Below are positions 18,978-40,128 of a stretch of DNA of 61,766 nucleotides, piece by piece. Within the stretch, counting starts at the first letter, position 1. Each line of letters opens with the position of its first letter. The position numbers were made by a program, and so were the translations under genes. The stretch is from NCBI GenBank assembly GCA_001871125.1, contig MNXB01000005.1, positions 1 through 61,766 of the forward strand, given 5' to 3'. Source of the DNA: Elusimicrobia bacterium CG1_02_37_114 (GTDB taxonomy: Bacteria; Elusimicrobiota; Endomicrobiia; CG1-02-37-114). The notes beneath the pieces are model-generated. The model searched no databases, was not told the origin of the DNA, and saw only the letters and a program-made list of their open reading frames with translations.

Positions 18978-20419
18978 CTCTTATTACCCTTTCCGATATT
19001 CTGTATGCACTCCATTCCTTCAGCCTTCGGCAGTATATATTTAATATTTTGAATCTCACCGTTTTTATTTTTGAGTTTTCTTATCCGTTGTTTAACCAAT
19101 ACCGAATGTTGAATACACATATCCGGTTCAATTATTGAACCGAAAATATAACTCGTTCCTTTTATCAGACATCTGTCTCCGATACGCACAGGGAATTCAT
19201 CACTGCCTGTTATATTTACCCCTGTCTCAATTCGGACATTATCACCCAGTGTCGTGTTTCCTTTAATAATGTTTCCGCCCACCATCTCCGTTTCCCTGCC
19301 TATTATCAGGGTTTGTTCAGGATATGTTGAAATGTGAACCCCCTCTCCTACCTTTACATTCTCGCTTAAAATAATATTGCCGTCAAGGCAGGCGTTCCTG
19401 CCGATAGTTATTCCTTTATTTATTTTCACTCCTTTAGAAATATAACAACCACTGCCTATGAATATATCCAGGGGACCAATTTTTTTATCTAATTTTATAA
19501 TGTCATTTATAACCTCTTCCGCAATGAAGAAATCCTCTTCGTCTTCAATGGATATTATGTCTTTTAATATTTCGTAATAGTTCTGCCTGACTATTGACTC
19601 CATTTTTTTCAATGTGCTTTTGTTATTGAACCCTAACAGCATTTCACTATTCTTTGACTGGAAACAGCCCACTTTCAACCCGGATTTGTTGAATATACTC
19701 ACTAAATCCGTCATATAAATTTCGCCCTGCACATTTTCTGCTTTAATTTTATTTATGTATTTCATTAGTTTTCCTGCCCTGAAGGCAAGAATACCTGAAT
19801 CAAATTCATTGTTTTTCAGCAGTTCGGTTTTTGTGAAAGCGTAAGGTTTTCCGTGATAATAACTCACGCACTCTCTCTTAGAGTTCAGTTTCAAAATATC
19901 CTTATGTTGAAGAATTTCTATAACCTCACCGGCACCTTCACCAGATTCAGGAACCCTCACTATACGACCATAATAGTTTGTTTCCACCGGTCCCTCGTAG
20001 GTGCCCGAAAGGAGCATCATATCGTAATCCGAATTTTCAAAAGATTTCCTGAAGTCATTTACTAACCAGCTTTTAAGAAGACCCGTGTCACCCGGGAAAA
20101 CATAGACATTGCCTGTCCAACTTTTCGGTATTTTTTTGACTGCTGTCTGTAAAGCATGTCCTGTCCCCCTCTGAACCTTCTGGTATGCAAAGACAGTGTT
20201 TTTTTTCTTGCCGACCAGTTCCATTACATCATTTGCTTTTTGCCCTATAACAATAACCTGGTTGTGACAGCCAAGCCCGTCTTCTACTGACCCGGAGACC
20301 CGCAAAACAGAAGGGATACCCCATATAGTATGCGCTACCTTGGGTGTTTCTGATTTAATCCTCTTGCCGTGCCCGGCGGCAAGAATGACCGCAATACTTT
20401 GTTTTTTTACCTTGTTCAT
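18965..20419 (-). CDS. glmU: GlmU-like nucleotidyltransferase with hexapeptide repeats
   Basis: ILAAGHGKRIKS.PK, GTGHA, YGRI and QGEIYMTD motifs; C-terminal beta-helix is divergent. Confidence 0.8.
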   Translation of the reverse strand: MNKVKKQSIAVILAAGHGKRIKSETPKVAHTIWGIPSVLRVSGSVEDGLGCHNQVIVIGQKANDVMELVGKKKNTVFAYQKVQRGTGHALQTAVKKIPKSWTGNVYVFPGDTGLLKSWLVNDFRKSFENSDYDMMLLSGTYEGPVETNYYGRIVRVPESGEGAGEVIEILQHKDILKLNSKRECVSYYHGKPYAFTKTELLKNNEFDSGILAFRAGKLMKYINKIKAENVQGEIYMTDLVSIFNKSGLKVGCFQSKNSEMLLGFNNKSTLKKMESIVRQNYYEILKDIISIEDEEDFFIAEEVINDIIKLDKKIGPLDIFIGSGCYISKGVKINKGITIGRNACLDGNIILSENVKVGEGVHISTYPEQTLIIGRETEMVGGNIIKGNTTLGDNVRIETGVNITGSDEFPVRIGDRCLIKGTSYIFGSIIEPDMCIQHSVLVKQRIRKLKNKNGEIQNIKYILPKAEGMECIQNIGKGNKRCVE

Positions 20420-21930
20420 ACCATTATTGATTTTGTTTGTTGAATCAGTTTATTTACTTTTTTATACGTTTCAAACATTTTTCCTTCAATTTTTCCTTCA
20501 GCAATTATGCGAACCAGCGGTTCGGTATTGGAGGCACGGACATGAATCCAGGAATTATCCTTAAATAATATTTTATATCCATCCGAATTATTTATTGAAT
20601 CAACAGAATTGTTTTTTTCATAGTAGTCACGGACTAATCTGAGTTTTAACTTCGGGTTTGCCAGCCTGAGCTTTCTTTTTATTAAAACATACGGGGGGAT
20701 TTCTTTTTCAAGTTCTGCAATGCTTTTCCCGCTTTCGGCAATATAACAGAGCAATAATGCCATGCCTACCGTAGAATTTCTGCCATAATTAACCGTGCCA
20801 AGAATTGTTCCGCCGTTACCTTCTGCACCGAAAACTGTTTTGTTGTTTATCATAGCATTGACTACATTTATTTCACCGACAGGTGTCCTGGAGATTTCTA
20901 TGCCATAGTGACCTGCAATTTCTTCCCAGGCACCTGTAGTGGATAAATTTACTGGTATACATTTTATATATTTTTTCTTGTTATCTTTTTGTAATTCTAA
21001 TAAAAATTTACCTGCCAGAAGTGGTGTGTATTCTTCATTTCTTAAAGGCATTGCCACAAGTCTGTCCTGGTCAGGGTCAAAGGCAAAACCAATGTCTGCG
21101 TTGAATTTTTGTATTGCTGATTTGAGAATTGCAAGGTGCTGCGGTATGGGTTCTAAAGGTCGGTTTGATTGTTCTATGGCATTGTTGTTGAGGACAATAA
21201 TGTTCTGAGGCAATATACCGATGGACAGTAAAAAGCTTTTTGGGAACTCGGCGCCGGATCTACTGCATGCGTCAATTATTACTTTAAATTCTTTTCCCCT
21301 TATTTTATCAAAGACCTGTGTGCCTTTACCTTTTTGCCCGCAGCATAAATCAATGACGTTTTTTACTTTTCTGAGCACGTCCCGGTTGTATCCGGTTAGG
21401 ACATCCTTTCTTATTTTTGGTAAAACGGTTCCCGGTTTAAATCTAAAATTAATTTCCTTATCGGTTCTATCAAATTTGTCAATGATTTTTTGCATCTGTT
21501 CCGGCTTAAGCAATGTTCCGTAATCATTGTTGTTTTTACCGGATATAAGTTTTATGCCATTCCATTCTATCGGGTTGTGGCTTGCTGTTATGATTATACC
21601 ACCCTGTGCTTTATAATTAATTATCGCCCACTGAATCATCGGTGTCGTTGCGGTCCCGAGATATATCAATTCAAACTTTTGTCTTTCCTTTTTGGAAATG
21701 TCTTCTATAGCAGAAAAAACACCTTGTAGCAGGATATTGCCGGACAGTTTCGGGTCTTTTCCGATAACAATCTTTATAGGTCTATTCCCCGAAGCATTTT
21801 TAACTAAATATTCACCGTAGAATGCAAGAGCAATCTTATATGCTTCAACGAGAGTTATTGATTTACCTACAATCCCTCTTATTCCGGATAAAGATTTTAT
21901 TAATTCTGACATTATTGTTCTATGCCTCAA
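20416..21930 (-). CDS. phosphoglucosamine mutase / phosphohexomutase
   Basis: ITASHNP, FDPDQDR and RASNTEP motifs; in an operon with glmU-glmS. Confidence 0.88.
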   Translation of the reverse strand: MRHRTIMSELIKSLSGIRGIVGKSITLVEAYKIALAFYGEYLVKNASGNRPIKIVIGKDPKLSGNILLQGVFSAIEDISKKERQKFELIYLGTATTPMIQWAIINYKAQGGIIITASHNPIEWNGIKLISGKNNNDYGTLLKPEQMQKIIDKFDRTDKEINFRFKPGTVLPKIRKDVLTGYNRDVLRKVKNVIDLCCGQKGKGTQVFDKIRGKEFKVIIDACSRSGAEFPKSFLLSIGILPQNIIVLNNNAIEQSNRPLEPIPQHLAILKSAIQKFNADIGFAFDPDQDRLVAMPLRNEEYTPLLAGKFLLELQKDNKKKYIKCIPVNLSTTGAWEEIAGHYGIEISRTPVGEINVVNAMINNKTVFGAEGNGGTILGTVNYGRNSTVGMALLLCYIAESGKSIAELEKEIPPYVLIKRKLRLANPKLKLRLVRDYYEKNNSVDSINNSDGYKILFKDNSWIHVRASNTEPLVRIIAEGKIEGKMFETYKKVNKLIQQTKSIMV

Positions 21931-34935: not shown

Positions 34936-35010
34936 TGCCCCTGGCCGGATTCGAACCGTCAGTCTTCTCCTTAGGAGGGAGCCGCTCTATCCAGATTGAG
35001 CTACAGGGGC
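34936..35010 (-). tRNA. tRNA-Arg(CCT)
   Basis: Cloverleaf with anticodon loop CTCCTAA; two stem mismatches. Confidence 0.85.
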
Positions 35011-39478: not shown

Positions 39479-39507
39479 ATTATAATACAGATATTGATAT
39501 TTGTCAA
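39479..39507 (-). promoter_or_regulatory. consensus sigma-70 promoter of the TA pair
   Basis: TTGACA-17-TATAAT. Confidence 0.8.
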
Positions 39508-39573
39508 GAGTTTTTTAAAGAAGTGTTTTTTTAAACGTTTTTTAAGACCGTAGGTTCGAACCTGCAGTTAAGG

Positions 39574-39648
39574 GGTGAGTGAGGGGACTTGAACCCCCAG
39601 CCTTCTGGGCCACAGCCAAACGCTCTAACCAATTGAGCTACACTCACC
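39574..39648 (-). tRNA. tRNA-His(GTG)
   Basis: Encoded G-1, discriminator C, anticodon loop CTGTGGC. Confidence 0.93.
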
Positions 39649-39705
39649 ACGTCTGAACCTTTTCCTAAGAGGTAATAACAAATAAATTAATGTTTTCAAA
39701 AAATA

Positions 39706-39991
39706 TGGGCCTGGTGAGAGTCGAACTCACAACCCCCTGCTTAGCATGCCACACTTAATTACTTAAGCTTTCGGAATGACCGAAATTGTGGTCTGGACTA
39801 TGTCTTCACCATTTCAGGTGTATGGCGTATAGTCTCTGAGGACTCCTATTAAACAATAGGTTGCCTGCAAATAATCCAGATAAAAAATCATCTGGACTTC
39901 CTTGCATATAGCCACATCCATTCTATGTATTTTATTCTACATAGAAGCTCCTTTTGAAGGCAGGTGCTCTATCCAGCTGAGCTACAGGCCC
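39706..39991 (-). tRNA. tRNA-Arg(TCT) split by a group I intron (exons 39957-39991 and 39706-39744)
   Basis: Joined exons give a perfect cloverleaf with anticodon arm CCTGC-CTTCTAA-GCAGG. Confidence 0.92.
39745..39956 (-). ncRNA. group I self-splicing intron, 212 nt
   Basis: Follows an exon U and ends in G. R element CAGAGACTA, S element AAGACATAGTCC; pairings P1-P9 can be drawn. Confidence 0.92.
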
Positions 39992-40013
39992 ATTGTATTT
40001 CAAACAACAAAAA

Positions 40014-40086
40014 TCGGGGCGGTGGGATTTGAACCCACGACCTCACGGTCCCAAACCGTGCGCGCTACCAGCTGCGCCACGCCCCG
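40014..40086 (-). tRNA. tRNA-Pro(TGG)
   Basis: Cloverleaf; anticodon arm CACGG-TTTGGGA-CCGTG. Confidence 0.95.
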
Positions 40087-40099
40087 AGATATTGAAAAG

Positions 40100-40128
40100 A
40101 TTATATCATACTTTGCTGATTATTTCAA
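40100..40128 (-). promoter_or_regulatory. promoter of the tRNA Pro-Arg-His operon
   Basis: TTGAAA-17-TATAAT with TG extension, overlapping the rdgB 3' end. Confidence 0.65.

Follow-up and report, generated by a model that had tools for sequence, protein, structure and literature searches.

The anticodon loop of tRNA-Arg(UCU) in an Elusimicrobia bacterium is interrupted by a group I intron of a widespread family that targets the same site

The tRNA-Arg(UCU) gene found in the window, that is, the whole stretch of 61,766 nucleotides analysed here (contig MNXB01000005.1 of Elusimicrobia bacterium CG1_02_37_114), is interrupted after U34 by an insert of 212 nt. We regard it as highly probable that this insert is a working group I ribozyme intron, lodged in the anticodon loop of what is the only tRNA-Arg(UCU) gene of the genome. 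Its sequence and fold, its membership of an intron family and the status of its host gene as the sole copy in the assembly are what the analysis establishes.

A sequence-only reading of this DNA had noticed two halves of tRNA-Arg(UCU) separated by 212 nt. The minus-strand coordinates were confirmed, and ARAGORN called Arg(tct) on the spliced sequence. The parts of the gene are as follows.

39991-39706, minus strand: whole split tRNA-Arg(UCU) gene, interrupted after U34 by the 212-nt insert
39957-39991, minus strand: 5' exon, 35 nt, ending ...CCUGCCUU, with U34 at base 39957 (ARAGORN on the spliced sequence)
39745-39956, minus strand: group I intron, 212 nt, first base C at 39956, terminal G (omega G) at 39745
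39706-39744, minus strand: 3' exon, 39 nt, CUAAGCAGG...CCCA (ARAGORN on the spliced sequence)

The 5' exon holds the acceptor strand, the D arm, the 5' strand of the anticodon stem (...CCUGC) and C32 U33 U34. The 3' exon provides C35 U36 A37 A38, the 3' strand of the anticodon stem (CUAA-GCAGG), the variable loop, the T arm, the acceptor strand and the discriminator A, and CCA is not encoded. When run without introns, ARAGORN did not detect the gene at 39706-39991; with introns allowed, it miscalled it (39705-39992) as SeC(tca) with a 203-nt intron. Deletion of the 212 nt resulted in a tRNA-Arg(tct) call. We then moved both junctions together from -3 to +3, and among these seven shifts ARAGORN returned Arg(tct) at 0 and +1, and Ser(gct) or SeC(tca) at the other five. 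Because the first base of the intron and the first base of the 3' exon are both C, shift +1 yields the same mature sequence as shift 0. Thus, the earlier statement that only the join after U34 restores the loop holds in that this join does give Arg(tct), but is slightly too strong as to uniqueness. Shift 0 is singled out by the rule that a U precedes the 5' splice site and a G ends the intron. Indeed, the insert does end in G, as had been read, with G39745 followed by CUAAG on the side of the 3' splice site.

The proposal of a group I intron inserted after U34, within the anticodon loop, was borne out by the Rfam model RF00028, which matched the window at 39967-39779 of the minus strand with 59.5 bits (gathering cut-off 50, E 1.4e-12, model positions 1-253). 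Together with a P1 carrying a U.G pair at the 5' splice site, the omega G and a core supported by covariation, this score points to a group I intron. All the helices previously listed, namely P1 (CUUC/GGAG), P2, P3, P4, P5, P7 and P8, are perfectly paired in the sequence, as are the additional helices P6, P6a, P9, P9a and P9b.

We evaluated this structure on two alignments. The first comprised 21 rows, i.e. the Arg(UCU) intron and 20 compact family members picked by eye for diversity from 36 introns of at most 320 nt. The proposed structure gave 87.3% paired cells versus 34-44% when partners were slid by 1-3 columns, a comparison that is inflated since the structure was derived from the Arg(UCU) intron, itself an aligned row. 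In the same rows, 50 of the 66 pairs varied on both sides, and none of 500 shuffles matched any observed measure. In the second alignment, 34 sequences were aligned to the core covariance model R1, and the paired cells of P3, P4, P6, P6a and P8 given below are those of these 34 rows. Overall, the core helices P3, P4, P6, P7 and P8 were 89-100% paired with many both-side changes, as compared with the 34-44% of the slid controls.

39948-39959, minus strand: P1, exon C32 U33 U34 and intron C1 with the guide GGAG; U34.G at the 5' splice site; loop AAAA
39921-39946, minus strand: P2 hairpin, 9 bp; 9/9 pairs vary on both sides, 92.6% of cells paired; recovered by the energy fold
39911-39916, minus strand: P3, 5' strand (partner 39821-39826); 5/6 pairs vary on both sides, 98% paired in the model-guided alignment
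39821-39826, minus strand: P3, 3' strand, pairing with 39911-39916
39866-39906, minus strand: P4 (39901-39906 with 39866-39871), enclosing P5; 5/6 pairs vary on both sides, 100% paired
39875-39896, minus strand: P5 hairpin, perfect 7 bp here; the two closing pairs alone alignable across the family
39840-39865, minus strand: P6 (2 bp) and P6a hairpin; P6 100% and P6a 90.6% paired; site of the endonuclease ORF in relatives
39830-39836, minus strand: P7, 5' strand with bulged A (partner 39795-39800); 6 pairs, 100% paired, 3 invariant and 2 varying on both sides
39795-39800, minus strand: P7, 3' strand, pairing with 39830-39836
39807-39820, minus strand: P8 hairpin, 4 bp; 100% paired, 3/4 pairs vary on both sides
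39749-39791, minus strand: P9 (5 bp) enclosing P9a and P9b; P9b with 5/5 pairs varying on both sides, 96.9% paired

P1 was the same in 21/21 aligned rows, but the search pattern demanded it, so that its invariance provides no independent support. Distal P5 and P9a were 52-56% paired; their lengths vary, they could be aligned neither with MAFFT nor by model-guided alignment, and their support comes from the Arg(UCU) intron's own sequence and the energy fold. An independent feature is a GNRA-capped hairpin located just before the 3' end of the intron in 60 of 61 family rows; here, it is P9b, whose cap is a GUAA tetraloop. Energy folding of the intron RNA gave z = -5.1, with none of 200 shuffles reaching as low a value, and recovered P2, P4, P5, P6a, P8, P9a and P9b; the long-range P3 and the P7 pseudoknot are beyond what such folding can reveal. 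We conclude that the group I structure of the Arg(UCU) intron is more than chance.

No endonuclease ORF was found in the 212-nt intron, in line with the earlier reading, the longest ORFs on both strands being 33 and 35 aa. The compact P2-P9 layout without P5abc would agree with the IC3 subgroup. According to Williams 2020 (bioRxiv 10.1101/2020.01.27.920355), the four classical kinds of bacterial tRNA intron are classed as IC3 in the group I intron database that it cites. The description of the intron as compact and Azoarcus-sized also stood, with 212 nt versus the 205 nt given for the Azoarcus pre-tRNA-Ile intron in PMC13168695. Both introns lie in an anticodon loop and have no large peripheral domains. 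The Azoarcus intron differs in its host, Ile2, and in its insertion after loop position 5, and the two are likened by size and layout.

We looked for the same arrangement in species genomes, using a pattern (the D arm of a tRNA-Arg, then CUU-C-(A or C), then a GGRG guide) that an intronless gene cannot match. The scan yielded at least 120 stretches, of which 80 were listed. Among these 80, 58 were tRNA-Arg(UCU) genes interrupted at the same position by a related intron, as scored by a script that looked 191-666 nt downstream for G|CUA, for a 3' strand able to close the anticodon stem, and for a T loop. Since the script called for a G at the end of the intron, that base, like P1, gains no independent support from these loci. 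Among the matches listed, removing the insert restored an ARAGORN call of tRNA-Arg(tct) in 58/58. These split loci carry at least 11 phylum labels and include cultured Bacillus, Neobacillus, Exiguobacterium and Haematobacter, with Bacillus gaemokensis (L042), a Neobacillus sp. (L018) and Exiguobacterium mexicanum (L091) among the carriers. The R1 model matched 63 of the 80 listed loci; in the 22 loci without a detected 3' exon, it matched five and gave no match in 17. The window intron scored 114.9 bits on R1, among the highest of the family, its sequence being a training row of the model, and untrained members of the Bacillus group scored 98-104 bits.

Among the matches listed, family members cluster at two lengths: those without an ORF measure 191-311 nt, and the others about 580-670 nt. 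At the lower end, the introns of loci L088, L046, L079, L058 and L086 measure 191, 196, 197, 199 and 199 nt and score 92-102 bits on R1. Shorter than the 205-nt Azoarcus intron, they may be regarded, from sequence, as candidate very small self-splicing ribozymes.

The window intron shares its host gene, site and core with the Omnitrophota loci L052 and L079, the classmates G009, G114 and G117 and the Bacillus-group loci L042 and L049, and it begins in the same way (C A .. GGAG C). The highest identity, 80% across 202 columns, is to L052. Unlike G114, G117 and L021, it has no endonuclease ORF, nor does it contain the decayed remnant found in G009; its end reads ..GGCAUG versus ..GGUAAG in most family members. 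Thus, with its insertion between U34 and C35 of Arg(UCU), its high R1 score and its place inside the family tree, the window intron belongs to a widespread family targeting exactly this site.

From these observations we infer transcription, chemistry and splicing in the cell along the following lines. The tRNA-Arg(UCU) would probably be co-transcribed with its neighbours tRNA-Pro and tRNA-His. In the precursor, C32 U33 U34 and intron C1 would pair with the guide GGAG to form P1, so that the 5' splice site falls at the U34.G wobble. The P3-P8 core would fold, and P7, which we presume to be the guanosine-binding helix as in group I introns generally, would provide the guanosine pocket. Free guanosine would then attack after U34; the terminal G (39745) would subsequently occupy the pocket, and the freed 3'-OH of U34 would attack before C35. 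The joined exons would make up a 74-nt tRNA with the loop CU-UCU-AA, and U34 modification and AGA reading would be possible only after this joining.

The neighbourhood of the gene comprises the following features.

40100-40128, minus strand: promoter-like site (TTGAAA, 17 nt, TATAAT with TG; 11/12), a consensus match directly upstream of tRNA-Pro
40013-40087, minus strand: tRNA-Pro(UGG), upstream neighbour in the same cluster, 21 nt from the Arg gene
39572-39647, minus strand: tRNA-His(GUG), downstream neighbour, 58 nt from the Arg gene

The promoter-like site is likely to be the start of a Pro-Arg-His transcript, judging by its match and position. The Arg-His adjacency is the same in relatives without the intron, and the Pro-Arg-His order recurs in G001. 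A separate sigma-70-like promoter match (12/12; TTGACA, 17 nt, TATAAT) lies directly 3' of tRNA-His at 39479-39507 of the minus strand and points at the small ORFs 39431-39210 and 39210-38929.

We also checked related genomes for tRNA-Arg(TCT) with and without the insert, as had been suggested, and both forms were found. A DNA search of 40 relatives retrieved the classmate G009, which has a 426-nt insert at the same site of the same gene and is identical to L076 over the split gene. Seven other relatives examined have an uninterrupted Arg(tct), in six of the seven beside tRNA-His. All four genomes of the same order are among these seven, and since 4/4 have the intronless Arg(tct) next to tRNA-His, the window gene is orthologous to theirs.

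The locus is listed in 24 sequencing runs, none of them RNA, and the 20 that hold at least half of it are groundwater or aquifer DNA. Contigs from 4/4 further DNA runs carried the intron-bearing form across both junctions with 0-1 differences. No contig of these four runs skipped the 212 nt, i.e. none showed an intronless allele. A few joints and loose ends were considered as intronless alleles and rejected: their sides are short and their T arms different, so that they look like tRNA genes of other organisms.

Would translation depend on this intron? The assembly (2.09 Mb, 96% complete, 130 contigs) contains 44 uninterrupted tRNA genes, and its intact Arg tRNA genes are acg, ccg, cct and tcg. 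ARAGORN found no other Arg(tct) gene in this 96%-complete, 130-contig assembly, in which a second copy could have gone unassembled. AGA is the commonest Arg codon, at 37.6% of Arg codons and 16.8 per 1000 when counted in ORFs of 300 codons or more. Under standard decoding, the acg, ccg, cct and tcg tRNAs do not read AGA, and Arg(CCU) reads AGG. Because the split gene is the sole Arg(UCU) gene in the assembly and AGA is left unread by the other tRNAs, splicing would be needed for normal translation. This agrees with the earlier claim that, if this is the only copy, the frequent AGA codons require splicing, and the organism's commonest Arg codon would depend on an RNA-catalysed step. A pattern for intronless genes, which recovers 6 of 7 known intronless loci, matched in none of five other intron-bearing genomes, including complete Neobacillus, Exiguobacterium and Omnitrophota chromosomes. 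Thus, cultured, growing bacteria appear to rely on splicing of this family as well, and the pattern search suggests that the split gene is commonly the sole copy, also in cultured bacteria.

The idea that the intron is dead, the gene a pseudogene and AGA read otherwise has nothing direct in its favour, and we consider it very improbable: the core helices, the U.G pair, the terminal G and P7 are all intact, the R1 score is among the highest of the family even if that of a training row, and by general decoding rules no other tRNA in the set reads AGA, the top Arg codon. Still more remote, to the point of being hardly credible, is an assembly or binning artefact, in which the insert or the contig would be foreign to the organism. 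The genome is, as a matter of fact, a metagenome bin, and the nearest relatives of the intron bear other phylum labels; yet the gene lies inside a 61.8-kb contig with the Arg-His arrangement of its relatives, and the four other DNA runs span both junctions with 0-1 differences (for example, the piece 39601-39989). That a true group I intron splices here only with a host protein, such as a chaperone or a maturase-like factor, deserves more weight but is still quite unlikely. Many group I introns need protein helpers in cells, and this one is AT-rich (40% GC over the core) with short P6 and P8. Against such dependence stand the compact architecture, the complete core and the conserved P9b GNRA tetraloop, and the intron encodes no maturase. 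Similar compact introns, from Azoarcus and from Bartonella Arg(CCU) (PMC7717549), self-splice in vitro. Collectively, we retain the working ribozyme as the preferred reading.

Another question is whether a real intron after U34 of Arg(UCU) represents a new, undescribed host setting. Outside the table image, figures and supplements of Williams 2020, no text found in the literature names a group I intron in tRNA-Arg(UCU), and the database cited by that study lists four bacterial tRNA settings only: Leu, Arg (after loop position 5), fMet and Ile2. However, the setting is abundant in public genomes, cultured strains included. Moreover, Williams 2020 described 21 tRNA intron settings, 17 of them new, in 80,413 bacterial and 1,028 archaeal genomes, by means of RF00028 and ARAGORN with introns allowed, a pipeline that should detect the Arg(UCU) family. 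Under its nomenclature the present intron would be an Arg setting at position 3, and the four classical settings are written Leu.3Ug, Arg.5Ug, fMet.2Ug and Ile2.5Ug. We therefore find a new setting unlikely, and the earlier view of Arg(UCU) as an unusual or new host did not survive the finding that 58 of the 80 listed loci are this same split gene, in many phyla and in cultured strains. Since the setting is so common in public genomes, the window intron is judged a known kind of element in a host setting common in databases, and a modest discovery. A somewhat stronger, still rather improbable, case can be made for the broader proposal that the Arg(UCU) U34 introns form a large lineage within the bacterial tRNA introns, one never named or characterised at the bench, that reached at least 11 phylum labels by means of an endonuclease related to PDB 2OST.

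Two known systems come closest by host or site. The tRNA-Leu(UAA) intron of cyanobacteria and plastids (Leu.3Ug), written CUU/a...g/AAAA in Williams 2020, occupies the same loop position after U34 and the same CUU context as the window intron. Since both hosts present CUU, a CUU-reading guide could serve either of them. The Leu(UAA) intron differs in its tRNA and 3' exon and is likened by site; the Leu(UAA) gene of the window genome is intact. The tRNA-Arg(CCU) intron of alphaproteobacteria (Arg.5Ug; Agrobacterium, Bartonella BbgpI) is likewise a group I intron in the anticodon loop of an Arg tRNA, but its isoacceptor is CCU, not UCU, and it follows loop position 5, not 3. The window intron does not match this classical type, and the Arg(CCU) gene at 34936-35010 is intact. 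Among Arg introns, it is the CCU one, with its other site, that has been the subject of bench work (PMC7717549). Because the Arg(UCU) family is widespread, compact (191-311 nt without ORF), present in easily grown Bacillus relatives and equipped with a PD-(D/E)XK endonuclease, it offers a convenient model, apparently not yet tested, for work on ribozymes and homing.

Within the class, the exon-intron pattern was found in 4 of 122 genomes, from four families, and in none of the four genomes of the same order, so the distribution of the Arg(UCU) intron in the class is sporadic. The R1 model, which needs no exon, found six of the 122 at E <=0.001, four of which are the same Arg introns. The match in G115 has flanks that read, by eye, like 23S rRNA; that in G116 lies in a split gene whose exons mirror the tRNA-Asn of the window genome. 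In a maximum-likelihood tree of 61 introns, built on a short alignment, all four class members fell in a 10-row clade (support 100/100) that also holds Omnitrophota (3), Elusimicrobiota, a 'Deltaproteobacteria' MAG and Terriglobia (long branch). The window intron grouped with two Omnitrophota rows and the 'Deltaproteobacteria' row (98/85). This pattern would fit horizontal spread; we claim no donor, because the alignment is short, the labels are those of submitters and the bins are possibly mixed.

A vehicle for such spread may be found in the longer relatives. Twelve ORFs taken from among the 22 introns of more than 400 nt were compared with Pfam: eight matched the PD-(D/E)XK endonuclease PF11645 (E 1e-29 to 1e-40), one LAGLIDADG_3 and one HNH, slightly below cut-off, and the remaining two had no Pfam match. 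A profile of the eight PF11645 ORFs matched PDB 2OST, 'Putative endonuclease', at E 1.5e-7; a single-ORF search against solved structures gave no match. We take 2OST to be I-Ssp6803I, the PD-(D/E)XK homing endonuclease of the tRNA-fMet intron of the cyanobacterium Synechocystis. The likeness concerns the ORFs of relatives, which lie in the P6 region. At that position (39840-39865), the window intron has a 6-bp P6a hairpin only, and tblastn with the endonuclease of a relative gave matches confined to the stretch in which the relative's ORF runs into the ribozyme core. The ORFs of G114 and G117 are open and full-length by tblastn comparison with that of L021 (E 3e-69 and 7e-73), and the G009 intron holds two endonuclease fragments whose middle is lost (tblastn, E 5e-19 and 1.6e-13). 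Its RF00028 score of 25.8 bits is low because of about 200 extra nt, which are the decayed endonuclease gene. Within one class, one intron position thus spans the endonuclease life cycle: intact (G114, G117), decayed (G009) and absent (window). The best explanation of these sequences would be that homing, driven by a PD-(D/E)XK endonuclease whose gene lies in P6, is how the Arg(UCU) family spreads. Having no endonuclease gene, the window intron could not home on its own.

Other introns were noticed in the same genome. A second split gene, tRNA-Asn(GUU), lies at C102:18779-19097 of the plus strand (L001:1477-1795) and contains a 245-nt group I intron after U35 (CUGU|...G|UAA; RF00028 93.1 bits). 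The 96%-complete assembly showed no intact Asn gene, so AAU and AAC (51 per 1000 codons) would also depend on splicing. The 23S rRNA gene (C37:18381-22055, L002) contains two or more group I introns, located around C37:19635-19864 and 19881-20555, with RF00028 scores of 69.4 and 36 bits; one has an ORF with a LAGLIDADG-like motif by eye. They differ from the Arg family, as their R1 scores are only 42.7 and 28.7 bits, and R1 scores of the other introns of the genome lie within 28.7-42.7 bits. Under the broader proposal of a large, never-named lineage, translation here would be ribozyme-dependent at three points, namely Arg(UCU), Asn(GUU) and 23S rRNA.

There is also a consequence for annotation. 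Standard tRNA finders overlook or mislabel the split tRNA-Arg(UCU) gene, and automatic calls on tRNAs split by group I introns can err in the anticodon. With its split genes overlooked, the genome would seem to have no tRNAs for AGA and, given the second split gene, for AAU and AAC, an apparent absence that might be mistaken for incompleteness or for an unusual genetic code. Incidentally, in the classmate G116, whose Asn-type gene is similarly split (L146), ARAGORN with introns allowed labels that gene Thr(tgt).
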